Source of the DNA: an uncultured bacterium
GTDB taxonomy: Bacteria > Zhuqueibacterota > QNDG01 > JAGLOF01
Direction: 5' to 3'
Length of the DNA: 64,000 nucleotides
Assembly: GCA_964621645.1 (NCBI GenBank)
Contig: CAZUMH010000003.1
Span: forward strand, 14,485-78,484
In this document: positions 45,912 through 64,000 of the stretch, one piece after another
Numbering within the stretch: the first letter of the stretch is position 1
Layout: each line of letters begins with the position of its first letter
The notes under the pieces: generated by a model
The model's database searches: none
What the model was told of the DNA's origin: nothing
Seen by the model: the letters and a program-made list of their open reading frames with translations, nothing else
Translations under genes and position numbers: made by a program

Positions 45912-45915
45912 AATA

Positions 45916-47232: not shown

Positions 47233-47286
47233 TTTGTCTTCCTCAAAAGAAATGAAAAATACATACGACAGGGTGACCAATCTCAG

Positions 47287-48061: not shown

Positions 48062-48080
48062 TTTAATCCTCCGATAAAAA

Positions 48081-48440: not shown

Positions 48441-48482
48441 GACTAGTTTCTCCTTACGCTAAAAATTAATATTAGTTTGACC

Positions 48483-49568: not shown

Positions 49569-49664
49569 CGAATCCGCCTATTCGATATGATCACTAAACA
49601 TAAAAAACATTGACTGGGACAAACAACGTATTAACAGTATATGCAAATAATAGAATAAATCATT

Positions 49665-49940
49665 TTAAAAAATAACATCTTCTCCCATCATTGTAATAAT
49701 TTGTTTTGCCCAATCGTTTGTGACGGAATAGCAGACCATCGTCCCTTCTCTCTCACCTTTAATAATGCCTGCCTGCTTCAACACTTTTAAATGCTGTGAT
49801 ATTGTTGACTGCGGAAGTCCCAGTTTCTTTTGTATTTCAGATACGTTGCAGCCATCCTGTTTTAATCCGGCGACGATTCTCAACCGTGCAGGATGCGAAA
49901 GCGCTTTTAAAATTTCACTCATTTCGTCAAATCGATCCAT
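49665..49940 (-). CDS. ArsR/SmtB-family transcriptional regulator with two Cys (sHdrR/SoxR-like)
   Basis: The winged HTH reads LSHPARLRIVAGL...VSEIQKKLGLPQSTISQHLKVL. Cys residues occur in DGCNV and MVCY. It is the first gene of the run. Confidence 0.8.
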   Translation of the reverse strand: MDRFDEMSEILKALSHPARLRIVAGLKQDGCNVSEIQKKLGLPQSTISQHLKVLKQAGIIKGEREGTMVCYSVTNDWAKQIITMMGEDVIF

Positions 49941-49985
49941 CAGCTTATTGTACTCTTTGTAATATATGTGATATCTTTTTTCTGC

Positions 49986-50516
49986 TTACACCTGTATCTT
50001 CTTTCCGAATTCATAGCCCTCTTCAAATGCCTTCATATTTTTATCAATAAATCTTTCAGGAACGGATTCCGGAATTGTCTTTCTCATCGCTTCCAGGGAG
50101 ACAACTCCTGTTGTGGCCGTTACAAATCCAAGCATCACCACGTTAGCAAAAATTCTATGACCCGTCTGTTCGGCAATCCGGGTTGAAGGTATGGAAAGAA
50201 TTTTCTTTTTTGTGTCGGTCTCCACCAAATCCTCATCGATAATGATCACCCCGTTATCCTTGACTTCTGGTTCAAATTTATTGTATCCCTCCTGAGACAT
50301 TGCTATTAAAAAATCTGTTTTTACGACATAGGGATACAATATTTTTTTATCAGAGACGACAAGCTGCGAGCTGCACGCGCCTCCCCTTGCTTCCGGTCCA
50401 AAGGACTGATTCATTGTGGCGAATCCCTCATCATAAATGGATACTGCCCTTCCTACAATAATCCCTGAACGGATTATTCCCTGCCCTCCGAATCCTGCAA
50501 ATCTCATTTCAGTCAT
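49986..50516 (-). CDS. 2-oxoacid:ferredoxin oxidoreductase gamma subunit
   Basis: The N-terminus FAGFGGQGIIRSGIIVGRA matches the Por/Kor gamma family. Confidence 0.85.
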   Translation of the reverse strand: MTEMRFAGFGGQGIIRSGIIVGRAVSIYDEGFATMNQSFGPEARGGACSSQLVVSDKKILYPYVVKTDFLIAMSQEGYNKFEPEVKDNGVIIIDEDLVETDTKKKILSIPSTRIAEQTGHRIFANVVMLGFVTATTGVVSLEAMRKTIPESVPERFIDKNMKAFEEGYEFGKKIQV

Positions 50517-50541
50517 GTGTAATTTCCCGCTTTATCTTGAG

Positions 50542-51261
50542 TTAAACTTCAATTTTTATGAATTTTTCGCCGATAACATCAGAAAGCTGCTTGTTGTACG
50601 ATTCGATGAATGTCGGTCTCTCCCTCTCAAAAAATTTCCCAAGGATTATTTTTTTATCGCTCTCAATTACGACATCATTAGTATCCGCATCATTGTTTAT
50701 TTCCGAGTGATCGCGGTAGAACTCAAGCAATTCAGGAGGAGGAGAAATCACATCAATGACGGAAAGGCCCGCTTTCTTTAAAGCGTCAGTTATCGAATTT
50801 GCCAATTCATTGGTGTGCAATGGTGTCCATCTGGCCACGTAGACGCTGCCGCAGGACCTTGCCATATGAGGAATATTTAACGGGTTTTCAAACAATAGGT
50901 ACGGCGAAAAAATAATTTGATCGACGTTCCCGGGGGCCTTCTCTTCGTCAACCTCCCGATAGAGAAAGTTATTAACGCAGATCACCATGATATCCATGTT
51001 CCTTCGGCAGGCATGCACAAAATGATTACCCCCCAGTGTTGCCATGTCCCCAATGAACACCACTGGTTTTAACATCGGATTCGATAGCTTCATTCCCGTC
51101 GCAAATGGGATTGCCCTGCCTCTTGATGTATGAAAGAAATCTATGCCCAGATAATCAATGGTATCGGGGCTGTAGGGAATATCCGTGACCATGCATACTC
51201 TTTGTCGCTCTATCCCAGAACTGTCAATTCCTCGATTAAAAGCTTCAATAGTTTTATCCAT
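50542..51261 (-). CDS. 2-oxoacid:ferredoxin oxidoreductase beta subunit (TPP-binding), copy 2
   Basis: The TPP motif GDMATLGGNHFVHACRRNMDIMVICVNN is present. Size is 239 aa. Confidence 0.85.
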   Translation of the reverse strand: MDKTIEAFNRGIDSSGIERQRVCMVTDIPYSPDTIDYLGIDFFHTSRGRAIPFATGMKLSNPMLKPVVFIGDMATLGGNHFVHACRRNMDIMVICVNNFLYREVDEEKAPGNVDQIIFSPYLLFENPLNIPHMARSCGSVYVARWTPLHTNELANSITDALKKAGLSVIDVISPPPELLEFYRDHSEINNDADTNDVVIESDKKIILGKFFERERPTFIESYNKQLSDVIGEKFIKIEV

Positions 51262-51279
51262 TATATCCCTGCCAAATAA

Positions 51280-52572
51280 TTAATGTTTTTCTGCCAGGCT
51301 TCCACCGAAAACCGAACGTTCCAGAGTCGTGGTAAATTCAAAAACTCCCTGATATCGTTTATTTTCGGTGGCTATCTGTTTTATCGCCTTATAAATATCA
51401 TCCGGATTATGAACCGACCCGCCTCCATGGGGAACGAGAATAACATTGGCATTTCCGTGACTGCACCTGTCCACCTCAAAAACAACCTGACCATAGTTGA
51501 TCTCGGGAACCACAAATCCCTTTACTTTTTTAGCAAGTTGAGCTATTCTCTCTTCTGGGAATGGCCAGATTGTGATCAGGCGAAGCGTGCCGACCTTTAA
51601 TCCCTCCGAGCGGGCCTGTTTCACCGCTCTGTAAGCTACCCTGGACGTGATTCCGTATGAGACGACGACAACATCGGCGTCTTCAATATTTTCTTCCTGG
51701 ATTTCGATGATATCATCCCTGTTCTTCCGGATTTTATCAACCAGGAATTGATTCGTCGATTTCTTATGCAGCACTGCAGCCTTTTCTAAATCGGGAAGTG
51801 ATTTTCCGTCCAAAATGGGATGCCCGCTCTCGTCGTGGGTTAATCCGGTGATATAGATCTTATAGCCGTCTCCCGCTTTTACGAGGGCAGGGACAAGATC
51901 TTTATCTCTTTTATATGGTTTGTATTCTTCTTTCGGACCGGTATAAAACCGCCGCGGCTCCAATTCAATTTCAGAAGCCTCTGGAATCACCACCTTCTCC
52001 GTCATATGCCCCACACACTCATCGGCCATCAGCATCACCGGCACACGGTAACGCTCGGCCAGATTAAACGCTTTAATTGCAAACTCAAATCCTTCCTGCG
52101 GGGAATCGGGCGCCAGGGCTATTACTTCATAATCGCCATTGGCACCCCATCTGGACTGCATAATATCCGCCTGTCCGGTATTGGTCGGTACACCGGTGGA
52201 AGGACCGCCCCGCTGAACATTGATAATCACAAAAGGAATCTCCATGGCCGCGCCAAGACCGATATTTTCCATCATGAGGGAATAGCCGGGTCCGGACGTG
52301 ATGGTCATAGATTTTTGTCCTCCCCACGAGGCGCCCAACACAGAAGCGATTGAACCTAGTTCGTCCTCCATTTGGATAAATCTGGCCCCAGCACGAGGCG
52401 CTATTTTCGCAAACGCTTCTGCAGCCTCGGTGGAAGGCGTTATCGGATATCCGCCTAAAAATTTGCACCCGGCAGCGAGGGCGCCGTAAGCCATCGCCAC
52501 ATCGCCATCAATATAATAGATACCCGTTAAAACATCCCGCGGATTTGCTTTCAATCTATGCCTCCCTGTCAA
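51280..52572 (-). CDS. 2-oxoacid:ferredoxin oxidoreductase alpha subunit, copy 2
   Basis: The 430-aa product belongs to the Por/Kor alpha family and is a paralog of 53420-54586. Confidence 0.85.
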   Translation of the reverse strand: MTGRHRLKANPRDVLTGIYYIDGDVAMAYGALAAGCKFLGGYPITPSTEAAEAFAKIAPRAGARFIQMEDELGSIASVLGASWGGQKSMTITSGPGYSLMMENIGLGAAMEIPFVIINVQRGGPSTGVPTNTGQADIMQSRWGANGDYEVIALAPDSPQEGFEFAIKAFNLAERYRVPVMLMADECVGHMTEKVVIPEASEIELEPRRFYTGPKEEYKPYKRDKDLVPALVKAGDGYKIYITGLTHDESGHPILDGKSLPDLEKAAVLHKKSTNQFLVDKIRKNRDDIIEIQEENIEDADVVVVSYGITSRVAYRAVKQARSEGLKVGTLRLITIWPFPEERIAQLAKKVKGFVVPEINYGQVVFEVDRCSHGNANVILVPHGGGSVHNPDDIYKAIKQIATENKRYQGVFEFTTTLERSVFGGSLAEKH

Positions 52573-52581
52573 TCCTGTCCT

Positions 52582-53412
52582 TTATTTCTTCTGCCAACTT
52601 TTCAATGACTCAGAAAACGTGGGCCTCTCTCTGTCAATAAATTTTCCCACGATGATTTCTTTTTGATAATCGATATCCAGATTGTCGGTCGACTCGCCAT
52701 GTCTGATGGTAGAATTTTCATAATAAAATTTCATCATGTCGAGTCCGTCGCCCAACTTGTTGATTCTGGAATAGTACATTGCACACGGTGAAATGACCTC
52801 GACGACGGAAAATCCCGGTCTGTTAAACGCTTCGACGATTGATTCGGCCAATCGGCGCATATGCAGAGCCGTCCATCTTGCCACATAGACCGCACCCGCC
52901 GCCTCGGCCAACCGAGGAATGTTCGCGGGAGCTTCAAAATTTCCGAACGGAGAAGTCGTTGTGTATGCGGGCATGGGTGTGGTGGGAGCCACCTGGCCTC
53001 CCGTCATGGCGTAAATAAAATTATTGACGAGAATGACCGTCAGGTCAATATTCCTTCGTGCCGCGTGAACGAAATGATTTCCGCCGATGGAAACCAGATC
53101 TCCGTCACCCGAAATAACCGCGACCTTCAAGTCTGGATTACCGAGTTTTATCCCTGTCGCAAAGGGAATGGCCCGACCATGGGTTGTGTGAAAAGAATCG
53201 ACTTTAATATATCCCGCGACTCTCCCTGTGCAACCGATTCCGGACACCACGCACAGCTTATCCAAATCAAATTCCAATTTGCTCAACGCTTCGGCGAACG
53301 CGCTGACCGCATTGCCTATCCCGCAGCCGGGACACCATATATGTGGTATCCTGTCCATCCGAAGTAAAGAATCCATCGGATGCGCTTTTTCTTTCAGTTG
53401 GATTGATTCCAT
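52582..53412 (-). CDS. 2-oxoacid:ferredoxin oxidoreductase beta subunit (TPP-binding), copy 1
   Basis: The motifs IPHIWCPGCGIG and GDGDLVSIGGNHFVHAARRN are present. Confidence 0.85.
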   Translation of the reverse strand: MESIQLKEKAHPMDSLLRMDRIPHIWCPGCGIGNAVSAFAEALSKLEFDLDKLCVVSGIGCTGRVAGYIKVDSFHTTHGRAIPFATGIKLGNPDLKVAVISGDGDLVSIGGNHFVHAARRNIDLTVILVNNFIYAMTGGQVAPTTPMPAYTTTSPFGNFEAPANIPRLAEAAGAVYVARWTALHMRRLAESIVEAFNRPGFSVVEVISPCAMYYSRINKLGDGLDMMKFYYENSTIRHGESTDNLDIDYQKEIIVGKFIDRERPTFSESLKSWQKK

Positions 53413-53419
53413 CTTACGC

Positions 53420-54586
53420 CTATTTTTTTACCAGTTTTTTAATTGATTTAAGAATATCGTCCGACTCTCCGATCTTGTCCGATGGATGGTTCAGTGAGTA
53501 AGTCACGGCCTCTCCTCTGCTGCACCGTTCGACTTCAAGAGAGATTTGTCCGAAATTGATTTCAGGGACGATAAAACCATCTATTTTTTTCGCAAGTTCC
53601 GCTATTCTCTTCTCCGCAAAGGGCCAAACCGTAATAAGCCGCAGGTGACCCGCCTTCACACCCTCCTTCCTGGCCTGCTGCACTGCTTCGTGTGCATCCT
53701 TCGACGCAATCCCATATGATACGACGATGACATCTGCGTCCTCTGTCTGGCTCTCTTCTACATCCACTATCTGATCGGTAAACATTCTGATTTTATTCAC
53801 CAGCCGGTGGACATTCCACTCCTGGCATTCGTCGTTCATGACAGGATATCCCCGCTGGTCATGGGTCAGTCCCGTCACATGAAACCGGTATCCCTGGCTG
53901 ATATCGACCATTGGAGGGACAAGATCCTTTTTATCATATGCAAAAGGCAGGTAATTGTCTTTTGCCCCTGTAAAATATTTTCTTTTTTCGACTTTGATAT
54001 CCTTTGGATCCGGGATCTCAACCTCACCTTCCAGTTTTCCGACGCCAACATCTGACATGACCATGACAGGAGTTCGATACTTTTCTGAGAGACTGAAAGC
54101 CCTGACAGTCAAATCGAACATTTCTTGTGGAGAATTTGGAGCGACAGCGATTATCTCATAATCACCATGAGAGCCCCAACGAGCCTGCATGATGTCTCCC
54201 GCTCCCGCGACATTCGGCAGCCCCTCGGAGACACCATCGTGTTGAATATCGACGATGACACACGGAGTTTCAAGCATCACTCCGAGACCAACGTGTTCCA
54301 TCATCTGAGAGAGTCCCGACCCGGATGTTACTGTCATGGATTTCTTCCCCGTCCAAGAGGCTCCCAAAACAGCGGCAAGAGCCGAGATCTCATCCTCCAT
54401 CTGAATAAATATACCATCGACATCTGAGGATCTCTCGATAAACCTCTTCACAATCTCAAAGGAAGGTCTAATGGGATAGTATCCTAAAAACCGGCATCCG
54501 GCTGCTATGGCTCCCTCGGCACAGGCTTGATACCCACTCAGCTGCTGTTTCCCCGTTAATACAGCTTTTAGATCTGCTTTCAACAA
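53420..54586 (-). CDS. 2-oxoacid:ferredoxin oxidoreductase alpha subunit, copy 1
   Basis: The 388-aa product belongs to the Por/Kor alpha family. Confidence 0.85.
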   Translation of the reverse strand: MLKADLKAVLTGKQQLSGYQACAEGAIAAGCRFLGYYPIRPSFEIVKRFIERSSDVDGIFIQMEDEISALAAVLGASWTGKKSMTVTSGSGLSQMMEHVGLGVMLETPCVIVDIQHDGVSEGLPNVAGAGDIMQARWGSHGDYEIIAVAPNSPQEMFDLTVRAFSLSEKYRTPVMVMSDVGVGKLEGEVEIPDPKDIKVEKRKYFTGAKDNYLPFAYDKKDLVPPMVDISQGYRFHVTGLTHDQRGYPVMNDECQEWNVHRLVNKIRMFTDQIVDVEESQTEDADVIVVSYGIASKDAHEAVQQARKEGVKAGHLRLITVWPFAEKRIAELAKKIDGFIVPEINFGQISLEVERCSRGEAVTYSLNHPSDKIGESDDILKSIKKLVKK

Positions 54587-54647
54587 TATCCCCTTTACCT
54601 TAATTTAATATATCTAATAATATAATTCTCTTCATTCCAGTCCATCA

Positions 54648-54956
54648 TCAACTCTCCACGGCTGCCTTTTGGGTTTTTTCCTGCTCTTGTGGTTGTGGTT
54701 TCCCCACTAAAAAGATGGCAAAATCAGGGCATATCATTTGACAAAAACCGCAATCCGCACAACCATCTCCATTGACTATTTCGGGAGGATGATACCCTTT
54801 TGAATTATATCGTTCGGACGTCTCGAGCACATCATTGGGACAATATTCCACACAAAAACCGCATCCCTTGCACCGATCCTCGATGATGACAATCTCTCCA
54901 CAAGGAGTAACAGGTTTGTCAAAGCCGAAAGGTCTTTCTCTGTATCGTATACGCAT
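54648..54956 (-). CDS. 2-oxoacid:ferredoxin oxidoreductase delta subunit (2x[4Fe-4S] ferredoxin)
   Basis: The ferredoxin motifs CKGCGFCVEYCP and CADCGFCQMICP are present. Size is 102 aa. Confidence 0.8.
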   Translation of the reverse strand: MRIRYRERPFGFDKPVTPCGEIVIIEDRCKGCGFCVEYCPNDVLETSERYNSKGYHPPEIVNGDGCADCGFCQMICPDFAIFLVGKPQPQEQEKTQKAAVES

Positions 54957-54977
54957 GAGGCCACCTATGTAAAATAA

Positions 54978-56651
54978 TTACCGCAACGTGCCCACATAAT
55001 TGGTTGTCAATTGTTTCTTTCGAACATCGGGGTTACTGTAATCCGGTAAAATCATGGGAGATACCCGTCCGCCGGTTTTAACCCCTGTCTTATCCAGCTC
55101 ATTATGATATTTCTTCACATGTTCCAAGCTCAGTTTCCCGTCTTTAAATTTATTTTTTATATACTCCGCAGCCGTCACACCGGCTATTCTGCCGAACACC
55201 GTCACATCCAGGAGGGAATTACCCATGAGTCTGTTCTCTCCATGAACTCCTCCGCTGACCTCTCCGCCGACGATAAGGCCGGGCACGATGGTCTCACATT
55301 TACTGTTTATCTCAAGGCCCCCATTCTGGTAATGAAGTGTGGGGAACACCAGCATGGGTTCCTTGGTAATATCGATCCCGTACCTGTGAAAGAGAATCCA
55401 CTTTCCAGGGAACTCCTTGCGCACATACCCTTCTCCTTTAAGGAGGTCAATCATCGGAGAATCCAGCCACACACCGAATTTGCCTGTCGGAGTGGGAATT
55501 CCCTTGTTGCGAACGGTACATTCCCTAATAAAAGCCGAGGCTTCGACATCTCGGGGCTCCCGTTCGTATACAAACTGTTCCCCATCGATGTTGACGACAT
55601 TCGCGCCTGCTCCTCTAAACTTTTCCGTAATCAGCAACCCTTCAGCCTGCTCAGGGAATACGGCTCCAGTGGGATGATACTGCACCGTATGTAAAAATTT
55701 GATGGGAACCCCGGCACGATAGCCGATGATCAAACCATCGCCAGTGGCTCCGTAATGATTGGTCGTCATGAAATCCTGGATATGAAGCCTGCCCGAACCG
55801 CCGGTGGCGATGATGGTGGCCTTTGCTTTTACAATAAGATATTCCTCGGTTTCCAGATTATAGAGAACGGCTCCGGCACAAGCGCCCTTGTCATTCAGGA
55901 TCAACTCTATCGCCGGCGAGAATTCCAGAACCTTGATATCAGCGGGATGATTCCTTGCCTCATCCCGTATCGTCCGCATGATCTCCGCTCCGGTAATATC
56001 TCCCGCGTAGTGCATTCGTTTCCGGGACGTGCCACCGCCGTGAAGCGTCTTGAACCGTCCCTCCTCAGACTTGGAAAACATCGCACCCAGTTTATCAAGC
56101 CACTGCATGACTTTGGGAGCTTCTGTTACAAGAGTCTCGACCAGCTCGGGATCATTCTTAAAGTGCCCCCCACCTATTACATCCAGATAGTGATAATATG
56201 GCGAATCTTTACCACTCTTGGTCGCCGCCTGGATGCCGCCTTCGGCCATCATCGTATTGGCATCGCCATGCCGGAGTTTTGTGGCGATGATCACTTTGAC
56301 TCCCTTCTCCCGCGCCATAAGGGCCGCAGAAGTCCCTGCTCCGCCACCGCCGATAATCAAGACATCCGTTTCAAAATCAGGATTGGAAAGGTCCAGCAGA
56401 TCTGGGTCAATCCTGCTTTTAGCATGCAGAAGGTCGACGATTTCGTTGGAAATCTTGTATCCCTTATTAGGCCCAACCTTAATCTCGGAACGTCCTTCCT
56501 GCTTAAAATCGGGATGATACTTTAATATATCCTCCCTCTCTTCGAGAGACATGGCCGGAAACTCTTTCCCCTGTTTCTTCATTTCCACCCTGGCCGGCCG
56601 CGTCTTCTCCACAACTTTGATTAATTTTTTCAACTCTGGTGTGTATGGCAT
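54978..56651 (-). CDS. Fumarate reductase/succinate dehydrogenase-family FAD flavoprotein with ~90-aa N-terminal extension
   Basis: The FAD site VLIIGGGGAGTSAALMA, the motif AEGGIQAA and the substrate-site motif QYHPTG (FrdA HPT) are present. It lacks a membrane anchor partner. Confidence 0.75.
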   Translation of the reverse strand: MPYTPELKKLIKVVEKTRPARVEMKKQGKEFPAMSLEEREDILKYHPDFKQEGRSEIKVGPNKGYKISNEIVDLLHAKSRIDPDLLDLSNPDFETDVLIIGGGGAGTSAALMAREKGVKVIIATKLRHGDANTMMAEGGIQAATKSGKDSPYYHYLDVIGGGHFKNDPELVETLVTEAPKVMQWLDKLGAMFSKSEEGRFKTLHGGGTSRKRMHYAGDITGAEIMRTIRDEARNHPADIKVLEFSPAIELILNDKGACAGAVLYNLETEEYLIVKAKATIIATGGSGRLHIQDFMTTNHYGATGDGLIIGYRAGVPIKFLHTVQYHPTGAVFPEQAEGLLITEKFRGAGANVVNIDGEQFVYEREPRDVEASAFIRECTVRNKGIPTPTGKFGVWLDSPMIDLLKGEGYVRKEFPGKWILFHRYGIDITKEPMLVFPTLHYQNGGLEINSKCETIVPGLIVGGEVSGGVHGENRLMGNSLLDVTVFGRIAGVTAAEYIKNKFKDGKLSLEHVKKYHNELDKTGVKTGGRVSPMILPDYSNPDVRKKQLTTNYVGTLR

Positions 56652-56689
56652 GATCCCGTCTCCATCAATGTATTCTATAGCCTTGTAAC

Positions 56690-57511
56690 CTATATAACTA
56701 GATGTATCTTTTCTTTGGGCTCCCAGAACTCATCAGCCGTATCGGGTTCGGTTTCCCGCGCGCTGTACACCTTCTTGAGAGCCTCAATGTCCATTTTTTT
56801 CAATTCTTCCAAATCCTTGTTGAACTTTCCCTTCTTTATATTTTCTACGACAGAATCAACATGCTTCGCTCTCGGCGATATGTGTCTTCCGTATAGCCGT
56901 CTCGTCAATATCGCCACATTATACTGAGCCTCCTCGGCCGGACAGCGGGCCGTACATAATCCGCACATGACACAATCGAAGGAAAGCTCGGCAGCTCCCG
57001 CAATGTCTCCCCGAATTGCTTTAGCAATATAATCCATCACATCGATATCCATCGGGCAGCTCCGGGTACAGGTGCCGCAGCCGACACACTTGAAAATTTC
57101 AGGATAAAGCGCCGTCACCGTAGATCCCGTTGGTTCTAATTTCTCGATATCATAGGTAGCTTTGTTGGCCGGGAAAAAGGGGATTTGCGTAATATACATA
57201 TCCGGCTGAACGACTGTCTGGCAGGCCAATCCCACCTCGATGCGGTAAGAATTGGGAAACCGGTACAGTGTTCCACAGGCACCGCATATACCTCCACGGC
57301 AGCCACACCCGCGTATGAGCTGATAGCCGGCATATTCCAATGCTTTCTGTATTGTCAGAGAGGCAGGCACTTGGTATTTCTTGCCCATGACGAATATGGG
57401 TACCATCTCATCTGCTTTTTGAGATGCCTTCTTGGTTGAAGCACTGGAGGGACTCTCCTTTTCTTTACCTTTCTGATTGTTGGGAACGGCGACTTTACTC
57501 ATGGCTGACAC
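56690..57511 (-). CDS. SdhB/FrdB-like iron-sulfur subunit ([2Fe-2S] + 2 ferredoxin-type clusters) with Lys/Ser-rich N-terminal extension
   Basis: The 2Fe-2S motif is CRGGICGACG. The ferredoxin-type motifs are CVGCGTCTRSCP and CVMCGLCTARCP. The first 35 aa are low-complexity and Lys-rich. Confidence 0.7.
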   Translation of the reverse strand: MSAMSKVAVPNNQKGKEKESPSSASTKKASQKADEMVPIFVMGKKYQVPASLTIQKALEYAGYQLIRGCGCRGGICGACGTLYRFPNSYRIEVGLACQTVVQPDMYITQIPFFPANKATYDIEKLEPTGSTVTALYPEIFKCVGCGTCTRSCPMDIDVMDYIAKAIRGDIAGAAELSFDCVMCGLCTARCPAEEAQYNVAILTRRLYGRHISPRAKHVDSVVENIKKGKFNKDLEELKKMDIEALKKVYSARETEPDTADEFWEPKEKIHLVI

Positions 57512-57932
57512 CCTCTTTTGTTAATGCTTTACTATCAAGATTAATTGGACCCAGGGCTCGTATTGTGTCTGCGAATTCGTTCATTACCGTAACAAATTTT
57601 TTCCCTTCAGCCGCAGAAATCCATTCCAATCGGAGACGTTTGCTATCGATTCCAAGATCGTCAAGCATTTTCTTGAAGAGGATTATTCTCCGAAGCGTCT
57701 TATAATTACCTTCAACGTAGTGGCAATCTCCGGGATGACATCCTCCCATGAAAACACCATCAGCGCCCTGTTTGAATGCGTGAAGAATATGCTGCGGGTC
57801 TATCCGGCTGGAACACATAACCCTCAGATTAATTCCATGGGGCATATATTCCATCCGTGACGTACCGGCAAGATCGGCCCCCGCATAGGTACACCACTTG
57901 CAGAGGAAACAGATAATCTTTGGTTCAAACAT
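57495..57932 (-). CDS. mvhD: MvhD-type hydrogenase iron-sulfur subunit
   Basis: It has the motif FLCKWCTYAGADLAG and overlaps the downstream gene by 17 nt. Confidence 0.8.
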   Translation of the reverse strand: MFEPKIICFLCKWCTYAGADLAGTSRMEYMPHGINLRVMCSSRIDPQHILHAFKQGADGVFMGGCHPGDCHYVEGNYKTLRRIILFKKMLDDLGIDSKRLRLEWISAAEGKKFVTVMNEFADTIRALGPINLDSKALTKEGVSHE

Positions 57933-57934
57933 AG

Positions 57935-59905
57935 CTATTCCTTTAACATCACTTTAACCATTGAAAATATTTGATCATCAGTCAAATTGCGCTGCTGAGC
58001 AGCTCCTGAGGGGCAGGCAGCCGCACAGGCTCCACAGCCCTCACAGAGAACTTCGTTGACCGTGACCACTTTTCTTTCTAAATCCAGTGATCTGGCACCG
58101 TATGGACAGACGGCCACGCAGATACCGCATCCGCTGCAGAGCTCTTCGTTCACCGGAACAATCGTCGGTTCATGAAGGAGCACTTCCTGAGCGAACAGAT
58201 CTCCGACCTTGGCTGCAGCCGCTGAAGCTTGAGAGACGGTCTCGGGGATATCCTTGGGGCCGTGGGCGCATCCAGCGAGGTAGAAGCCGGCGTTCAGGCT
58301 CTCGACGGGCCGTAATTTTGGATGGGCCTCCGCCAGCCATCCGTTGGCATCCGTAGAAATCTTAAGCTTTTTTAAGAGACTTTCCACACCCTCGGTCTTT
58401 ACCATGGACATGGCCAGCACGACCATATCGGCCTCCATTTCCACTTTCTTCCCGGTAAGTGTATCCGAACCCCAGACAATCAGTTTGTCTCCCTCTTTGA
58501 TAATCTTGGATACCTTTCCGCGGATATAGAGCACCTCGTCTTCATCGATGGCCCGTTGGTAGAATTCTTCAAAGGCCTTTCCGCCGGTCCGCACGTCGAT
58601 GTAGAATACCGTGGCATTCCCATCGGGCACGCGGTGTTTATAGAGCATTGCATGTTTGGCCGTGTACATACAACAGATCTTACTGCAGTAGGAATTATGA
58701 TTTTCCGGATCCCGGGAGCCGCAACATTGTATGAAGACGACATTCTTCGGCACCTTTCCGTCTGAGGGCCTGCGGACTTCACCTCCAGTCGGTCCGGACG
58801 CGGACAGGATTCGCTCAAATTCCAGGCCATTGAGGACATCTTCGTACTTTTCTCCGCCGTATTCACCCAGAGCCTGCATCGTGTACAGATCATACCCCGT
58901 GGCGACAACAATCGCGCCAACCTCTTCTTCCAGGATCTCCTCGACCGCATCATAATTGATGGCATTCGGTTCACATACCTCTTTGCACTTACCGCACCGG
59001 ACAGGAAGAAGACCGAGACAACTGTCGATGTCCAGGGTGTAGGTTCCGGGAATAGCCTGCGGGAACGGCAGATAAATTGCTTTCCTGAATGAAAGTCCCA
59101 TATTGTATTCATCGGGAACGACTTGCGGGCAAACATCTTCGCAATCTCCGCAAATCGTGCAGACATTCTCATCCACAAAGCGAGGTATCTTTCTGATCTT
59201 GACTTTGAAGTTCCCCACAAATCCGGATACCTCAAGAACTTCGTGGTAGGTCATTACCCGGATATTCGGGTGGCGAGACACTTCCACCATTTTGGGGGTC
59301 ATGATACACTGGGAGCAGTCTAGAGTGGGAAACGTTTCGGAAAGCTGGATCATATGGCCACCGATAGACGGTTCTTTCTCTACCAACAAGACTTCATATC
59401 CATGATCCGCGATATCCAAAGCCGCCTGAATGCCGCTGATTCCGCCACCAATGACCATCGCCCGGCGAGTCACGCCAACACGGATGGGCTCAAGGCTCTC
59501 ATCCTGTTTGGCCTTCTCCACCATGGACTTGACAATCCTGATGGCCTTCTCCGTTGCCATTTCCTTATCGGAATGCACCCAGCTATCCTGTTCACGAATA
59601 TTGGCAATCTCAATCTGATAGGGATTGAGCCCAGCCAGCTCGGCCACGTTTTGAAATGTTTTCTCATGAAGCGTCGGAGAGCAGGCCGCGACAATAATGG
59701 CATCTAATTTCTCTTTCTTGATCGTCTCAAGAATCGTCGTCTGTCCCGGATCCGAACACATATACACATAATGCGTCGAAAAAGCTACTCCCGGGTAGGA
59801 TTCCAGTTCCTTAGCAACCCGCTCAACATCGACGACACTGGAAATATTGACACCACAGTGACAGACAAAAAGACCGATTCGCTTTTTCTTCCCGTTTCCA
59901 TTCAT
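57935..59905 (-). CDS. hdrA: Heterodisulfide reductase subunit A (full-length HdrA)
   Basis: The N-terminus reads GLFVCHCGVNIS. The FAD site is AMVIGGGISGIQAALDIA. An inserted ferredoxin domain and C-terminal motifs CSGCGICVAVCP and CEGCGACAAACP are present. Size is 656 aa. Confidence 0.85.
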   Translation of the reverse strand: MNGNGKKKRIGLFVCHCGVNISSVVDVERVAKELESYPGVAFSTHYVYMCSDPGQTTILETIKKEKLDAIIVAACSPTLHEKTFQNVAELAGLNPYQIEIANIREQDSWVHSDKEMATEKAIRIVKSMVEKAKQDESLEPIRVGVTRRAMVIGGGISGIQAALDIADHGYEVLLVEKEPSIGGHMIQLSETFPTLDCSQCIMTPKMVEVSRHPNIRVMTYHEVLEVSGFVGNFKVKIRKIPRFVDENVCTICGDCEDVCPQVVPDEYNMGLSFRKAIYLPFPQAIPGTYTLDIDSCLGLLPVRCGKCKEVCEPNAINYDAVEEILEEEVGAIVVATGYDLYTMQALGEYGGEKYEDVLNGLEFERILSASGPTGGEVRRPSDGKVPKNVVFIQCCGSRDPENHNSYCSKICCMYTAKHAMLYKHRVPDGNATVFYIDVRTGGKAFEEFYQRAIDEDEVLYIRGKVSKIIKEGDKLIVWGSDTLTGKKVEMEADMVVLAMSMVKTEGVESLLKKLKISTDANGWLAEAHPKLRPVESLNAGFYLAGCAHGPKDIPETVSQASAAAAKVGDLFAQEVLLHEPTIVPVNEELCSGCGICVAVCPYGARSLDLERKVVTVNEVLCEGCGACAAACPSGAAQQRNLTDDQIFSMVKVMLKE

Positions 59906-60834
59906 GACGCAACCTCAGCTTTCGACTCGATTCCCAGTATGGACCGAGGGTCACAATAGTGTTGATCAAATCCTAACATTTTTTCATCGACTCCCAACGC
60001 CCATGCGAGCAATTGAGTAAAGAAAAGAACCGGCATTCCAGTGAAATCAAGAAATTTCTCTTTTATCCTGTCCTGCCTGCGATCTAAATTATAATAACAC
60101 AGGGGGCAACTCAAGGCGACGGCATCAGCCCCATTTAACTTTGCCGAACGAAGTATGTTATATGATGCCTCTGAAGCCGCATCCGGCATCGATATTGACA
60201 GGTACGATCCGCAACATTCCTGCTTGTAGGGAAAATCAATTACATCACACCCAATATTTTGAAGGAACTCTTCGAAAATCGTCGGATCATCAGGTTCATC
60301 GATCCCTACTTCGCCCTTGGGGCGAAGAAGACGACAGCCGTAATAGGGGACGACTTTCAGACCTGAAAGATCCCGTTTGATCAGTGATCGGATTTTTTCA
60401 TACCCCACTTCATTCTTGATAAATTCCAGCAAATGAAGCACCCAGACCGTTCCGTTATACTCTGCAAAACCCGTCGTCTTCTTATTCGTTAACGGATCTA
60501 TTTTAATATCATCATGGAGATAGGCGTTGATACGCTTATGTTTCAAGGGATCTTTCAACAAAGCCTCATTCGTGCGTTTCAGTACGTTGAAACAGAAAGC
60601 GCATACAGTAAAAACCTTGTCTCCTCCCTCTATTTCAACCTGCCTGAGAATGCGAGCCGGTGCTGCCAGACCGATAATCTTCTCCTCATTTAAGGGAAAC
60701 TCGGCCCCGCAACAGGTCCAGTTTTCCGGCTCGACCAACTCGTAGCCCAACGCTTCCATGGCCGCGTAGGTCGACGTATCCAAATTTACGGTCTTCTCTT
60801 TTACGGTACATCCAGGGTAATAATGAATTTTCAT
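59902..60834 (-). CDS. hdrB: Heterodisulfide reductase subunit B (two CCG domains)
   Basis: The motifs YYPGCTV, WTCCGAEF and QECCGSY identify two CCG domains. It overlaps hdrA by 4 nt. Confidence 0.85.
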   Translation of the reverse strand: MKIHYYPGCTVKEKTVNLDTSTYAAMEALGYELVEPENWTCCGAEFPLNEEKIIGLAAPARILRQVEIEGGDKVFTVCAFCFNVLKRTNEALLKDPLKHKRINAYLHDDIKIDPLTNKKTTGFAEYNGTVWVLHLLEFIKNEVGYEKIRSLIKRDLSGLKVVPYYGCRLLRPKGEVGIDEPDDPTIFEEFLQNIGCDVIDFPYKQECCGSYLSISMPDAASEASYNILRSAKLNGADAVALSCPLCYYNLDRRQDRIKEKFLDFTGMPVLFFTQLLAWALGVDEKMLGFDQHYCDPRSILGIESKAEVAS

Positions 60835-60878
60835 GCTCGCTTCTTCCTATTCTGATTTACTCATATAATCAAACAAGA

Positions 60879-61298
60879 TCACTTACTGAATTTCCGATAT
60901 ACGGCTACCAGTACCTGTTGAGGAAGTTCTTCGGCTAATTCAGCGGGTACTTCGTTGGGTCCGAAATAATCCTTCCCTTTGGGTTCGATAAGAGATCGGA
61001 CCGCTTCTGCCACACTTGCGATATTGATTCCCTTGGGGCAGCGACTCTGACATGTAAAACATGAAGCACAGAGGAAAAGAGCCTTCGATCCTATCAGTTC
61101 TTCCTCCTGGCCCATTTGCACCAATCGTATCATCTGATTTGGAAGAATATCCATTTCGAAAGCAAAGGGGCAGCCGGCACTGCACCGACCGCACTGATAG
61201 CAGCTGTACACGTTTTCACCTGAAAGCTCGTTGACTTTCTCGATGAATTTCTTTTCATCCTCGCCACGTTTTAGTTTTATCCGCATATATTTCCTCAC
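60879..61298 (-). CDS. hdrC: Heterodisulfide reductase subunit C (2x[4Fe-4S])
   Basis: The motifs CYQCGRCSAGCP and CASCFTCQSRCP are present. Size is 139 aa. Confidence 0.85.
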   Translation of the reverse strand: MRKYMRIKLKRGEDEKKFIEKVNELSGENVYSCYQCGRCSAGCPFAFEMDILPNQMIRLVQMGQEEELIGSKALFLCASCFTCQSRCPKGINIASVAEAVRSLIEPKGKDYFGPNEVPAELAEELPQQVLVAVYRKFSK

Positions 61299-61305
61299 TT
61301 AATAC

Positions 61306-63138
61306 TTATGCCGCAGCACTTTTATTGAGTTTCTTTAACGATTCTTCCGCAACTTCTCGGACCGTTTTCCTCTCTCCCTTATTCTGAATGAGTAATTTCA
61401 ATGGAGGGATCGCTCTCGTGTCACCGATTTCTCCCAATAACCTTGCTGCCCGAAAACGGGTAGTCCAGGACTTGCTCGAAAGGGCGTGAATGCAGTGGGA
61501 TACTGCCGTTGATCCGAAATTTATCAAGGCCATTTCCGCGCTCTGCCGTACGCTCCAATGACTGTCGGCAGTAACTTCCAGCAGCGGCCCGATGGACCGG
61601 TTATCCTGAAAATTCCCCAACAGACGGGCCGCCTGAGAACGAACAGTTCTATCTTTGTCCGCCAGAGCCTGGCGGGCCGTCTCAATGACCCCGCGCTTGC
61701 CGGTCCCGATGGAACGAAGGAGACGCATGGATTCCGAACGAATGTAGGGATCTCGGTCCGCGACTACCTCTTTGCGCAACGCCTGAACTGCTTTGTCGCC
61801 CCCCACACGGGCCAAAGCCCGTACCGCCTCGAGACGCACATTGCCAGAATCATCACCCAGGGAATAGATAAAGTTCCGGGCCAGACTTTCATCTCCCACA
61901 TGGCTCAGGACGATAAGAGCGCCTATTCTTCCCCAGGCGGCGCAGCCAATACGGTAAAGTGCGGACACCACTTCTTCCCGGACTTCAGGACTGGCCTTCT
62001 CCTCCAGCTTTTTCAATACATCTCTCGCTCTGTGATCTTCCAATCCTCCCAGAGCCTGAACTGCACGCATCTGTTCTCCCGGATCGGATCCCTTACGGGC
62101 CTGCTCCATCAGATCAGTGATATCTGTTTCATTATAGGCCAAAAGAGGCACCAAGGTGGGAATTACAGCCTCCCCGAACCGCACCAGTGCCGTCACTGCC
62201 GTGCGCCGCACAACAAAGTAACTGCTTCGCAGCTGAGCCGCCAACGCTCCGATGGCCCTCTCATTTCCGATCAGGCCCAGACAGTGAATGATCTGACGCA
62301 GGGTAAATTTATCTTTTTCATGAGCCAGGGCATCCAGCAAGTGATCGACGGCAAGGGAACCGAAACCAGCCAGAGCTTCCGTGGCCTGATTTTGCACCGC
62401 AGGTACCGTATCACTCAGACAGGAAACCAGTGGAATAATAGCAGTTGCATCCTGTATAAGCCCCAGTCCATTAACCGCTGTTTCACGAACCTGCCAGTCC
62501 GGATCTTCCAATAGATCAATCAGCCGCGGCACCGCCGGTTTATACCCGATACGGCCCAGAGCCAGGGCCGCGTGTCCGCGCATAAGAGGAGAAGGATTCC
62601 CCAGTGTTTCAAAAAGAAGATCCGTGGCTTCATTTCCCATGGTGATCAATCCCGCCAGGGCCAGGTCCACGATTTCCCGATTTTCCAGGGATAGAAGGCG
62701 GATCAGCTGCCGCAGATACTGCTTATTGCCGATTTCAATGATTTCCTGAATCTTGTATTTGATCTCGGTAGCCGCCTGGTTTCGCACGATCCATTCAGGA
62801 TCATCCACCCGCTGGATCAAGGTGTCGATCACATGAAAATCGCCCAAGCGGCCGATGGCTGCCAGAGCGGCCCAGCGGATATTGGGATCCAGCGACTGCA
62901 GGATATACGCCTTGCTTAGCTCATCCACCGCTTCCGGATTGCCGAAGCGTCCCAGGGAAATGACCGAGGCATGCTGCACGCTGCGATTGGCATCCCGCAG
63001 CGAAGCCAAGAGAGCGGTATAGATACGCTTCCCTTCCCGGTAACCAAGTTTGATCACCGCCTCCCGGCGCAGGCTCGCGTCCTCGCCTGAATGTGTCTGA
63101 TTGATGAGTGTGTCGATACTTTCGGCCATAATTCCCAA
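61306..63138 (-). CDS. HEAT-repeat (PBS-lyase HEAT-like) protein, 610 aa
   Basis: It contains more than 12 tandem ~30-aa repeats of the PBS-lyase HEAT-like type (..VR..A..ALG.IGD..A...L...L.D.D..VR..A..AL..). It lies 7 nt upstream of hdrC. Confidence 0.7.
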   Translation of the reverse strand: MGIMAESIDTLINQTHSGEDASLRREAVIKLGYREGKRIYTALLASLRDANRSVQHASVISLGRFGNPEAVDELSKAYILQSLDPNIRWAALAAIGRLGDFHVIDTLIQRVDDPEWIVRNQAATEIKYKIQEIIEIGNKQYLRQLIRLLSLENREIVDLALAGLITMGNEATDLLFETLGNPSPLMRGHAALALGRIGYKPAVPRLIDLLEDPDWQVRETAVNGLGLIQDATAIIPLVSCLSDTVPAVQNQATEALAGFGSLAVDHLLDALAHEKDKFTLRQIIHCLGLIGNERAIGALAAQLRSSYFVVRRTAVTALVRFGEAVIPTLVPLLAYNETDITDLMEQARKGSDPGEQMRAVQALGGLEDHRARDVLKKLEEKASPEVREEVVSALYRIGCAAWGRIGALIVLSHVGDESLARNFIYSLGDDSGNVRLEAVRALARVGGDKAVQALRKEVVADRDPYIRSESMRLLRSIGTGKRGVIETARQALADKDRTVRSQAARLLGNFQDNRSIGPLLEVTADSHWSVRQSAEMALINFGSTAVSHCIHALSSKSWTTRFRAARLLGEIGDTRAIPPLKLLIQNKGERKTVREVAEESLKKLNKSAAA

Positions 63139-63146
63139 ACCGCCTC

Positions 63147-63644
63147 TCAGCGGCGTTCGATGTATCCCTTACAGTCACCCTCCATATCGAAGGAGGTGAC
63201 CTGATAGTCTGCGTCCAGATTTGAAAGCGCCCGTACAGCCGCTCTGAAACAACCGATGCGGGCACAGGTAAGATCACGTAACCCCATCCCCTGCTCGATG
63301 AGAGTCCGGCAGCTTTTTAAATACTTACACTCATGGATGGTTATATCCACTTTGAAAGGATTCGCTTCCACCAGCTCGAAATCACTGGCGTCACGGAAAA
63401 CGCGAGCCGCTACTCCCACTTCAATGTATTTACTGATCGCATCAATAATTGATGTGGCCTTTCCTACCCGGATGCCGTACTCGTCTCCCAGCCGGTGCAG
63501 AAAATGCTGTACCGAATGCTCGTAGGCACGTTCGCAGAACATCCGCGGCCGGGTGCCGTGAAAATCACGTGCTGTCTCCTCCAGAGCGCTGAGCCAGCTT
63601 AAGGCAACGACCCAGCCGGCTTCTTCTTTATTTATCTTCTGCAT
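63147..63644 (-). CDS. Hypothetical Cys-containing protein (possible V4R-like small-molecule-binding domain)
   Basis: The 165-aa product has several Cys residues (C..., CKYLKSC, CARIGC, CKG) and no confident family assignment. Confidence 0.35.
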   Translation of the reverse strand: MQKINKEEAGWVVALSWLSALEETARDFHGTRPRMFCERAYEHSVQHFLHRLGDEYGIRVGKATSIIDAISKYIEVGVAARVFRDASDFELVEANPFKVDITIHECKYLKSCRTLIEQGMGLRDLTCARIGCFRAAVRALSNLDADYQVTSFDMEGDCKGYIERR

Positions 63645-64000
63645 GAATTCTTTCCTGGATTTCCCTCATAGTCCGGCTGGGGATCCCCTCCAATCCCAGA
63701 TTTTTCAACTCCCGGCGCACACTCTGAACGGAGTACGATTCCCCGGTTTTCTGATTTAACTCCCGCGTGATCTCCGCCGCCGGCTCACCGGGCATTTCGG
63801 CCCAAAGCATGATCAGCGCCACCCTGTCTTCCGGGACAAGATTTGCCAGTCTTGTTTTCTTTTCAATCTGGGAAATTTCCGTCTCAGGCTGTTCTCCCAC
63901 GCTGATGAGTATTTCCTGGGTGTCCTGTGCAATCGCCAGCTCCTCATTGGTGGGGATTACCAGAACGTGCACCGAGCCCGTACCCAGATCGAGCTCGTTC
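63628..64000 (-). CDS. Acetate/propionate kinase-like C-terminal fragment with unusual ~85-aa C-terminal extension (gene begins beyond window end)
   Basis: The frame is open to the window edge, reading ..NELDLGTGSVHVLVIPTNEELAIAQDT. This matches the AckA C-terminal motif VIPTNEEL(V/M)IA(Q/R)D. It is followed by about 85 more residues with an HTH-like segment. Confidence 0.4.
   Translation of the reverse strand, partial: NELDLGTGSVHVLVIPTNEELAIAQDTQEILISVGEQPETEISQIEKKTRLANLVPEDRVALIMLWAEMPGEPAAEITRELNQKTGESYSVQSVRRELKNLGLEGIPSRTMREIQERIHAEDK

Follow-up and report, generated by a model that had tools for sequence, protein, structure and literature searches.

A soluble fumarate-reductase-like pair encoded with Hdr, hydrogenase and 2-oxoacid:ferredoxin oxidoreductase genes in an uncultured bacterium: a candidate H2-driven, bifurcating fumarate reductase

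In the present study, we analysed a 64,000-nt stretch of DNA from an uncultured bacterium of the Zhuqueibacterota (assembly GCA_964621645.1, contig CAZUMH010000003.1, positions 14,485 to 78,484; hereafter the window). Between positions 54978 and 63138, genes for a HEAT-repeat protein and for HdrC, HdrB, HdrA and MvhD are followed by those of an iron-sulfur (FeS) protein and a short flavoprotein, and the genes of a 2-oxoacid:ferredoxin oxidoreductase (OFOR) come next. We propose that this locus, together with hydrogenase genes just outside the window, encodes one soluble multi-subunit machine in which the electrons of H2 would pass through an Mvh-type hydrogenase to HdrA and there be bifurcated to ferredoxin, for use by OFOR, and to fumarate. 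We put the probability of this whole reading at about 0.5. An earlier interpretation made without database searches (the sequence-only reading) had proposed an Hdr-coupled soluble fumarate reductase, which was right in kind, although several of its specifics changed.

Genes of the locus and their arrangement

The genes were found at the coordinates that the sequence-only reading had given, all on the minus strand, according to the open reading frame (ORF) list and to the Pfam and NCBIfam family models, which were applied with their curated cutoffs (Table 1). The two motifs on which that reading had drawn were also present: CRGGICGACG occupies residues 71-80 of the FeS protein, and QYHPTG occupies residues 324-329 of the flavoprotein. 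The minus-strand series ran without a break from a 165-aa ORF (63147-63644) down to the OFOR gamma gene (49986), with spacings of -17 to +61 nt. Overlaps of 4 and 17 nt had been described, and both exist. The 17-nt overlap is that of mvhD and the FeS gene, but the 4-nt overlap joins hdrB to hdrA and is not an Hdr-fumarate reductase junction. An identical database protein (P0293) begins at the ATG at 57502, which is probably the true start of the FeS gene and would reduce the former overlap to 8 nt. The OFOR genes had been described as a separate downstream operon, a division that was not retained: the spacers that follow the flavoprotein gene were 21 and 61 nt, and no terminator-like site was found in the intergenic gaps from the 165-aa ORF to the OFOR gamma gene. 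Promoter and terminator counts were no higher than in shuffled controls, and the scan is informative on the absence of intergenic terminator-like sites only and not on transcript boundaries.

The region upstream of the window was recovered from a contig (L087) that was found by exact match of the 165-aa protein. This contig was 99.97% identical to positions 60801-64000 of the window (3144 nt compared) and extended 3.2 kb further. It encoded, on the same strand, the 3' part of a VhuG-like small subunit (134 bits), a 486-aa VhuA-like [NiFe] large subunit (406 bits) in which the RxEGH and DPCFGCATH motifs were present, and a 484-aa acetate/propionate kinase (TIGR00016, 520 bits; cutoff 293). The hydrogenase genes lie about 1.5 kb past the window edge, upstream of the kinase gene. 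The HEAT-repeat gene had been placed at the head of the operon, a position it does not hold, as the 165-aa ORF and the kinase and hydrogenase genes precede it on the same strand. The kinase gene (2094-3548 of the contig) carried a C-terminal extension of about 85 aa, and its stop overlapped the start of the 165-aa ORF by 17 nt. A HycI-type hydrogenase maturation protease was also encoded in the window.

No transmembrane-like segment was detected in any product of 49986-63644 or of the contig extension beyond the window. Therefore, no SdhCD- or FrdCD-type membrane anchor is co-encoded at the locus, in agreement with the sequence-only reading.

The Hdr subunits were complete. Residues 7-655 of HdrA aligned to residues 3-651 of HdrA of M. 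thermolithotrophicus (5odc_A, 706 bits) with all Cys motifs matched, and the protein carried the N-terminal, thioredoxin-reductase-like, inserted and C-terminal ferredoxin domains of the bifurcating type. HdrB contained the motifs CX31CCX35CXXC and CX39CCX34CXXC, which are the sites for two non-cubane [4Fe-4S] clusters, and matched the methanogen subunit 8rvu_b over its full length (134 bits). Two CxxCxxCxxxC motifs were found in HdrC, at Cys33-43 and Cys77-87. All three subunits scored under the methanogen equivalog cutoffs (HdrA 816 vs 1100, HdrB 154 vs 345 and HdrC 69 vs 160 bits).

Table 1. Features of the operon and its flanks in the window, from the upstream to the downstream end.
Feature	Position	Strand	Supporting match or remark
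Acetate/propionate-kinase gene, 3' part	63628..64000	-	ackA TIGR00016; runs off the window end
Conserved 165-aa Cys-containing protein, accessory, window-type loci only	63147..63644	-	no family match
HEAT-repeat protein (PBS-lyase type), 610 aa, accessory	61306..63138	-	HEAT_2 2e-106, 11 stretches
HdrC-like 2x[4Fe-4S] subunit	60879..61298	-	TIGR03290 5e-19; Fer4
HdrB-like subunit, two complete CCG motifs	59902..60834	-	CCG x2; methanogen HdrB 8rvu_b full-length
HdrA, full-length bifurcating-type flavo-FeS subunit	57935..59905	-	HdrA2 model 816 bits; 5odc_A 706 bits
MvhD-type [2Fe-2S] connector	57495..57932	-	FlpD 1.9e-51, VhuD 9e-37
FeS subunit of soluble fumarate-reductase-like pair	56690..57511	-	2Fe-2S + two 4-Cys [4Fe-4S] motifs
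Short Frd/Sdh-type flavoprotein, 557 aa	54978..56651	-	FAD_binding_2 (PF00890) 1.5e-73
2x[4Fe-4S] ferredoxin, OFOR delta-type	54648..54956	-	OGOR_delta 1.4e-16, OorD 9e-13; 21 nt past flavoprotein gene
2-Oxoacid:ferredoxin oxidoreductase alpha1-beta1-alpha2-beta2-gamma	49986..54586	-	gaps 7-61 nt; closest to 2-oxoglutarate-type

The flavoprotein and its iron-sulfur partner

The residues of the flavoprotein were compared by alignment with E. coli FrdA, SdhA and NadB and within a family alignment of 32 sequences (37-89% identity). The catalytic set H326, T342/E343/R346, R367, H440 and R474 was kept and was invariant across the family; H326, R367, H440 and R474, with the T342/E343/R346 capping motif, align with FrdA H232, R287, H355 and R390. 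The position of the His that binds flavin adenine dinucleotide (FAD) covalently (FrdA H44, SdhA H45) was taken by Asn132, which was likewise invariant in the family alignment; an Asn stood there in all 15 family members compared and in most relatives of about 400 aa. The FAD of the flavoprotein is accordingly predicted from its sequence to be non-covalent. At the position of NadB Glu121, the flavoprotein has Gly205, and the family has G, A, S or L, whereas Glu was found in all four NadB sequences. The C-terminal helical domain was missing, with no match to PF02910 (Succ_DH_flav_C) and an end about 80 residues past the NRLMGNS motif. A 93-aa N-terminal extension was conserved, and P47, G60 and G64 within it were invariant.

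The Frd, Sdh and NadB models matched the flavoprotein over the FAD and capping domains only, and its scores were under every curated cutoff: 347 of 718 bits for TfrA (NF004900), 293 of 567 for SdhA-FrdA (TIGR01812) and 269 of 453 for NadB (TIGR00551). The TfrA match spanned only profile positions 6-426 of 546. In the PDB, sequence matches to Sdh and Frd reached 1e-50 to 1e-68, vs 2.6e-11 for the AprA type. The structures of the flavoprotein and the FeS protein were modelled from shallow alignments (78-89% and 66-81% identity, respectively). The AlphaFold model of the flavoprotein (pLDDT 70, pTM 0.76) found SdhA/FrdA as its best PDB folds (E 7e-25), followed by the flavocytochrome-c fumarate reductases and then NadB.

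A homologue search among 1.84 billion representatives separated the relatives that share the N-terminal extension, which formed a distinct set at 301-632 bits, from canonical relatives, which scored no more than 255 bits and aligned from about query residue 93. The nearest canonical class, both by identity (42%, methanogen TfrA P0170) and by NCBIfam score, was TfrA. In a bootstrapped neighbour-joining tree (Kimura distances, 392 core columns), the flavoprotein family and the relatives of about 400 aa stood apart from FrdA/SdhA, TfrA and NadB at 100% bootstrap; NadB formed its own clade at 100%, and the grouping of the flavoprotein family with TfrA received 0%. As the sequence-only reading had supposed, these results indicated a protein of the Frd/Sdh type and not NadB or AprA, and the alignment confirmed its catalytic Arg and His residues.

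Three assignments were rejected. An identity as NadB was ruled out by the Gly at the Glu121 position, the separate NadB clade and the score under the cutoff, and an identity as AprA by the weak PDB match. Membership of TfrA was ruled out by the score under the cutoff together with the tree. Taken together, the sequence evidence suggests a fumarate-reductase-like enzyme of its own lineage that would hold its FAD non-covalently.

Such an isolated position would also fit an enzyme with a different substrate, for example another enoate or dicarboxylate (mesaconate/methylsuccinate) or an amino-dicarboxylate, in which case the Hdr link would serve some other reductive reaction. The separate clade and low model scores, the loss of the C-terminal domain and the unique N-terminal extension are in line with this possibility, and the same His/Arg set is common to NadB. 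We consider it quite improbable, however: no variation was seen in the residues for carboxylate binding or for hydride and proton transfer to fumarate, the position of NadB Glu121 is never Glu in the family, and the pair recurs beside fumarase and succinyl-CoA ligase genes and is the sole Sdh/Frd candidate in the tricarboxylic acid (TCA) cycle array of the window.

The FeS protein is encoded directly beside the flavoprotein. Both genes were adjacent in 75 of the 75 loci with enough flank and were fused in P0122, which makes their partnership firm. The Cys pattern comprised C71/C76/C79/C97 of the 2Fe-2S type, C142/145/148/152-P and C180/183/186/190-P. In an alignment with FrdB and SdhB, the cluster motifs came in the same order, but a fourth Cys completed the final motif, and the loop at which quinone is bound in complex II was shortened. 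The third cluster should therefore be a 4Fe-4S and not a 3Fe-4S cluster. The protein had been described as SdhB/FrdB-like, a label that the Cys pattern fits. The family searches gave no clear support for membership: the dhsB score was 26.8 bits vs a cutoff of 88, neither SdhB nor FrdB appeared among the best 60 of 104 PDB sequence matches, and a fold search with the FeS model (pTM 0.51) returned NuoG/HydA-type N-terminal modules first, with E. coli FrdB at rank 39 (E 0.014). The TfrB model matched the FeS protein, HdrB and HdrC at 36-38 bits each only. In public databases, members of this family are named 'ferredoxin', 'HdrC' or '4Fe-4S dicluster protein'.

A four-Cys third cluster is also a feature of SdhB in type-E complex II, which raises the question of whether the HdrB-like CCG protein could serve as a monotopic anchor of the SdhE type in a peripheral quinol:fumarate reductase. 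The HdrB-like protein did score 139.5 bits on the MFR SdhE 'anchor' model (NF042965), near its 154 bits on HdrB. Yet this score is far under the cutoff of 500, and the best PDB matches are methanogen HdrB proteins over their full length. Its gene is closely linked to those of HdrC, HdrA and MvhD, a search for hydrophobic or amphipathic anchor segments found none, and the flavoprotein and FeS protein both fall outside the SdhA and SdhB families. A quinone-linked enzyme is consequently regarded as extremely improbable.

Related loci and neighbouring genes

Relatives were collected in a one-genome-per-species scan, which returned at least 508. The best 80 loci were all in metagenome-assembled genomes (MAGs) and were 71-88% identical. 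They came from Aminicenantes, Thermodesulfobacteriota/Syntrophaceae, KSB1, Zixibacteria, Fermentibacteria/Aegiribacteria, Ignavibacteria, Gemmatimonadota and Dehalococcoidia. The tight linkage of a soluble pair to Hdr genes, which the sequence-only reading had noticed in the window, was found across phyla.

Five architectures were distinguished. In the window type, the order is hydrogenase, acetate kinase, 165-aa protein, HEAT protein, HdrCBA, MvhD, FeS protein, flavoprotein, ferredoxin and OFOR. The second is a compact hydrogenase type: in L020, the genes for the small and large [NiFe] subunits are followed by HdrCBA, MvhD, FeS protein, flavoprotein, ferredoxin, OFOR, SucCD and FumAB, and in L047, L074, L076 and L028 the order is MvhD, FeS protein, flavoprotein and the small and large [NiFe] subunits, to which L028 adds NuoE/NuoF-like genes. 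The Syntrophaceae type consists of HdrA, HdrC, HdrB, a 1010-aa HdrL, MvhD, FlxB/C-like protein, FeS protein and flavoprotein, often followed by SucCD. The fourth architecture has HdrC, HdrB, FeS protein and flavoprotein with no HdrA or MvhD. In the fifth, which was found in MAGs of marine Gammaproteobacteria/Thiotrichales (L084-L086; 9366-12891), three overlapping genes encode the FeS protein, the flavoprotein and a NuoF-like protein. This unit looks like a candidate soluble NADH:fumarate reductase of the same clade; a homologue with 45% identity is annotated in Prochlorococcus sp. MIT 1201.

Among the loci with both HdrA and MvhD, a hydrogenase was present in 22 and HdrL/FlxBC-like proteins in 26, and no locus had both. 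Hydrogenase and HdrL/Flx-like modules alternate while the pair stays constant, which suggests that the pair is the acceptor end and that the donor modules are interchangeable. HdrB and HdrC accompanied the pair in 53 of 63 loci, including loci that lack HdrA and MvhD. A fumarase or succinyl-CoA ligase gene lay within 10 kb of the pair in about 30 loci; SucC directly followed the flavoprotein in 8 loci, and the OFOR delta gene did so in 20.

The sequence-only reading had placed the pair in the position of the MvhAG hydrogenase on MvhD, so that the fumarate/succinate couple would be connected to ferredoxin and to a thiol or disulfide at HdrBC only. The overlap of mvhD with the FeS gene and the immediate upstream position of MvhD in 26 loci agree with such a replacement. 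The hydrogenase that it presumes to be missing is, however, encoded on the same strand just beyond the window and flanks the cluster in the 22 related loci; pair and hydrogenase coexist in L028, L047, L074 and L076. In addition, we calculated that a thiol of about -140 mV cannot drive the reduction of fumarate plus ferredoxin. This part of the earlier proposal was given up, and we regard it as very improbable.

The units that consist of HdrC, HdrB, FeS protein and flavoprotein leave a thiol as their only obvious donor. They would fit an arrangement of two enzymes joined by a diffusible thiol, in which Mvh-HdrABC would reduce a low-molecular-weight or protein disulfide in addition to ferredoxin and the pair would act as a thiol:fumarate reductase, perhaps sharing HdrBC, with the same net chemistry. 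Both CCG motifs of HdrB are complete, as in HdrB proteins that reduce disulfides, methanogen TfrA is the nearest canonical class, and a DsrC-like shuttle has been suggested for Endoriftia. On the other hand, each cluster holds a single HdrBC pair, which two enzymes could share only as parts of one complex; the window showed no gene for a thiol carrier of the DsrC or TusA type, and the flavoprotein clade never groups with TfrA. We treat the thiol shuttle as an unlikely alternative.

Two accessory proteins characterise the window type. The HEAT gene was found upstream in 16 of 63 loci, all of this type, and was missing from L020, where the hydrogenase genes abut hdrC. The 165-aa ORF, which is separated from the HEAT gene by 8 nt, encodes a protein with six Cys that had no Pfam, NCBIfam or PDB match; it was 66-75% identical at the same position in about 16 related loci and accompanied the HEAT protein in every window-type locus. 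It may serve in assembly or regulation or be a further subunit, and the HEAT protein is possibly a scaffold. The HEAT protein matched the C-terminal HEAT part (749-869) of the 898-aa PRK13800 'fumarate reductase/succinate dehydrogenase flavoprotein' model. Natural fusions of an Frd-type flavoprotein with HEAT repeats thus exist elsewhere, which hints at a functional link.

Downstream of the pair, the OFOR alpha1 and alpha2 subunits passed the PRK08659 model (470 and 509 bits; cutoff 411), and the next-best models were those of 2-oxoglutarate synthase alpha and beta. The beta2 gene (50542-51261) reached 105 bits only and was N-terminally truncated and degenerate, so that alpha2-beta2 looks like a non-catalytic pseudo-pair; by eye, beta2 lacked the WCPGCG cluster motif and the GDGD thiamine pyrophosphate/Mg motif. 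Related Aminicenantes loci have a single OFOR alpha-beta pair. We propose that OFOR is a consumer (or source) of ferredoxin. The surroundings are those of the TCA cycle, as the sequence-only reading had stated: the pair lies in a minus-strand array with OFOR, SucCD, citrate synthase, aconitase, isocitrate dehydrogenase and class I fumarase. A GlcD-like FAD oxidase (492 aa), a 185-aa polyferredoxin and a 4HBT thioesterase are encoded between citrate synthase and sucD (36806-39382).

Other redox genes were observed in the window. A second Hdr-like set (41465-47793), directly upstream of sucCD, encodes an MvhD, a split HdrL-like pair, two FlxB/C-like FeS proteins (388 and 364 aa) and another MvhD. 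The members of the split pair (454 + 560 aa) match the N-terminal and C-terminal halves of a 1010-aa HdrL (L036 and L028) at 30-33% identity, and counterparts of this set sit within the Frd-like operon in the Syntrophaceae-type variant. Between OFOR and this set, an HdrD-like protein (48483-49568) with 2x4Fe-4S and 2 CCG motifs had its best NCBIfam match in TfrB (131-487, 164 bits), and therefore resembles TfrB minus the 2Fe-2S domain. The G+C content was 0.43-0.47 over 42000-52000 vs 0.50-0.55 elsewhere. This segment, in which the second Hdr set, the HdrD-like gene and OFOR alpha2, beta2 and gamma are encoded, may have been laterally acquired or more recently rearranged. Farther away, a GltD-like NAD(P)H flavoprotein (20541-21983), a NuoF-like FMN subunit (22639-24438; 57% identical to the NuoF-like gene in the Zixibacteria cluster L028) and an [FeFe]-hydrogenase-like protein with an adjoining histidine-kinase-type ATPase lie within 20541-28261, which looks like a HydABC/Nfn-type or sensory hydrogenase module.

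Proposed reaction and comparison with known systems

In the reaction that we propose, the Vhu/Mvh-type [NiFe] hydrogenase would oxidise H2, and the electrons would pass via MvhD to the bifurcating FAD of HdrA. The low-potential electron would leave by the ferredoxin-type clusters of HdrA to ferredoxin or OFOR delta and so reach the co-operonic 2-oxoglutarate-type OFOR. The high-potential electron would travel through HdrC and HdrB to the FeS protein and the non-covalent FAD of the flavoprotein, where fumarate would be reduced to succinate. Fumarate would take the role that CoM-S-S-CoB (the heterodisulfide of coenzymes M and B) holds in methanogens, and HdrBC, the FeS protein and the flavoprotein would constitute a 'split' TfrAB-like module. 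The route through HdrBC is suggested by the architecture that has HdrBC only and by the precedent of TfrB, in which FeS and CCG parts are fused. It is uncertain, as the gene order equally allows docking of the pair beside MvhD.

The energetics were considered for H2 as donor. Ferredoxin has a potential of about -500 mV. The fumarate/succinate couple has an E0' of about +33 mV (2018 bifurcation review). With H2 at about -414 mV vs an acceptor mean of about -230 mV, the reaction would be comfortable.

The direction of fumarate reduction is favoured because the covalent-FAD His is invariably lost, the partner in Gammaproteobacteria is of the NADH type and the hydrogenase is of the uptake type. 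In E. coli FrdA, loss of the covalent FAD in His44 variants abolishes succinate oxidation and not fumarate reduction, and Mvh-type hydrogenases of group 3c are generally held to work in H2 uptake. With NADH or H2 as donor, only the fumarate-reducing direction can be driven. The opposite direction, a confurcating succinate dehydrogenase, had been offered as an option by the sequence-only reading: electrons of succinate and of ferredoxin reduced by the adjacent OFOR would converge on HdrA and leave as H2 or to an HdrL/Flx partner. If true, this would overcome the energetic obstacle to oxidising succinate, whether in syntrophy or in a TCA cycle that runs oxidatively. The family is indeed common in MAGs of Syntrophaceae, Syntrophobacterales and Thermodesulfobacteriota, the window has citrate synthase instead of ATP-citrate lyase and acetate kinase in the operon, and Hdr bifurcation is reversible in principle. 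The calculated mean of succinate and ferredoxin, about -230 mV, reaches H2 only at very low H2 partial pressure. The invariant Asn, the uptake-type hydrogenase and the NuoF-like NADH partner in Gammaproteobacteria all speak against confurcation, the last because succinate cannot reduce NAD+, and we judge it improbable.

Several observations weigh against the proposed H2-driven bifurcation to ferredoxin and fumarate. The reading does not account for the acetate kinase, 165-aa and HEAT proteins of the operon. By its sequence, the FeS protein is not demonstrably a member of the SdhB/FrdB family, and the AlphaFold models of the flavoprotein and the FeS protein are both moderate (pLDDT about 70). 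The gene next to that of the FeS protein is MvhD in 26 loci, FlxB/C-like in 28 and HdrB in 9, which would also fit docking of the pair next to MvhD. In about 10 loci, some of them on truncated contigs, Hdr genes were not seen near the pair. HdrB retains a complete site of the disulfide-reductase type, and a thiol/disulfide co-substrate may be involved. The window has citrate synthase and no ATP-citrate lyase, and TCA flux in this organism could run in either direction. Finally, the sequence itself shows the subunits with their cofactor motifs, the intact fumarate site, the loss of the covalent-FAD His, the lack of anchors, a conserved gene order and the exchange of input modules, whereas assembly into one complex, the path of the electrons, the roles of H2 and ferredoxin as donor and second acceptor, and the reaction direction are inferred.

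A more far-reaching arrangement can also be imagined, in which the Vhu/Mvh-Hdr-fumarate reductase would be docked to the OFOR of the 2-oxoglutarate:ferredoxin oxidoreductase (OGOR) type, perhaps with HEAT scaffolding, as an H2-driven supercomplex. One bifurcation would then power two steps of the reductive TCA cycle, namely fumarate to succinate and, with the low-potential electron channelled without free ferredoxin, succinyl-CoA to 2-oxoglutarate. We offer this as a speculative and unlikely extension. If true, it would be a bacterial counterpart of the CO2-fixing Hdr-Fwd supercomplexes of methanogens and would answer what bacterial Mvh/Hdr reduces without CoM-S-S-CoB.

Complexes of the Mvh/Hdr type occur widely among uncultured anaerobic bacteria in which coenzymes M and B should be missing, and what they reduce at the high-potential end has been asked at least since the genome paper on Zixibacteria. 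The locus, with roughly 500 relatives in other genomes, suggests that this acceptor is fumarate. The clade, which is highly conserved (71-89% identity across phyla), was previously unrecognised, with the flavoprotein publicly annotated merely as 'FAD-binding protein' and the FeS protein as 'ferredoxin/HdrC'. If the reading is true, an H2:fumarate/ferredoxin enzyme joins the short list of flavin-based bifurcating systems, energy would be conserved from fumarate reduction without a membrane, and fumarate reduction would be genetically tied to ferredoxin-dependent CO2 fixation by OGOR.

Compared with known systems, the pair shares with complex II (SdhABCD/FrdABCD) the FAD-binding and capping fold, the full catalytic set and the order of the FeS motifs. 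It differs in lacking the covalent-FAD His, the C-terminal flavoprotein domain, the 3Fe-4S motif and the membrane subunits, in its shortened quinone-site loop and in the scores of both subunits, which are under the cutoffs. The locus resembles MvhADG-HdrABC of methanogens (PDB 5ODC) in that HdrA, HdrB, HdrC and MvhD are full-length with all cluster motifs and a VhuA/VhuG-like hydrogenase is co-encoded, so that the same logic of H2 bifurcation would be expected. Unlike that complex, its subunits score under the methanogen equivalog cutoffs, and the FeS protein and the Frd-type flavoprotein are embedded in it along with OFOR, HEAT and acetate kinase genes. TfrAB of methanogens is likewise soluble, with non-covalent FAD and a module of 2Fe-2S and 2x4Fe-4S clusters combined with CCG domains; in the locus, however, the CCG domains belong to separate HdrB and HdrC proteins and are not fused as in TfrB, the flavoprotein is without the C-terminal domain that the TfrA model includes, and the whole is joined to HdrA/MvhD and a hydrogenase. 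Miura et al. reportedly described in 2008 a soluble NADH:fumarate reductase of Hydrogenobacter thermophilus, FrdABCDE, with a GltD-like NADH subunit and no HdrA/MvhD or hydrogenase. By this description, it is similar to the locus in its soluble multi-subunit form, reductive TCA context and lack of an anchor; the marine gammaproteobacterial unit of FeS protein, flavoprotein and NuoF-like protein is its closer functional analogue.

The closest precedents are the Flx-Hdr fumarate reductases. In P. thermosuccinogenes, bifurcation was proposed for a 'succinate operon' that combines fumarase and Flx-Hdr genes with those of a two-gene fumarate reductase (Koendjbiharie & van Kranenburg 2019, as cited in PMC7282089). 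Likewise, the reductive TCA cluster tfrAB-korABCD-flxABCD-hdrABC of Endoriftia/Thioflavicoccus, which is co-expressed in tubeworm symbionts, was proposed to form an electron-delivering complex (PMC6315080, PMC11636981). Like the locus, these systems are described as having a two-gene soluble fumarate reductase with HdrABC and a connector of the MvhD/FlxD type, the exergonic electron going to fumarate and the endergonic one to ferredoxin, and the Endoriftia cluster also co-encodes a four-subunit OGOR. The difference lies in the donor, which would be a Vhu/Mvh hydrogenase and not FlxABC/NADH. Only the FlxD-like MvhD is in the operon; HdrL- and FlxB/C-like genes occur 8-13 kb downstream (41945-47280) and are part of the operon only in the Syntrophaceae-type variant. 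No biochemical proof of an Flx-Hdr-coupled fumarate reductase was found in the searchable literature, and the 2018 bifurcation review lists no fumarate-reducing system. The locus offers a concrete, purifiable target for these still unproven proposals.

For Zixibacteria, Castelle et al. noted that CoM-S-S-CoB is probably absent, as it probably is in the other bacteria considered here, and reported a cluster of Mvh/Hdr and OGOR whose acceptor was left open, with no link to the two genes of the pair. Literature on the cluster in Aminicenantes, Zixibacteria and Syntrophaceae yielded only generic mentions of Hdr next to 'succinate dehydrogenase' (tables of the STRING type) and Hdr/Flox or Mvh/Hdr clusters without an Frd link. 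The concept of an Hdr-coupled fumarate reductase has already been proposed and is not new. What the locus and its relatives add is the hydrogenase-driven version, a distinct and conserved Frd-like clade present in many uncultured phyla under generic annotation, and the swapping of the modules that accompany it.

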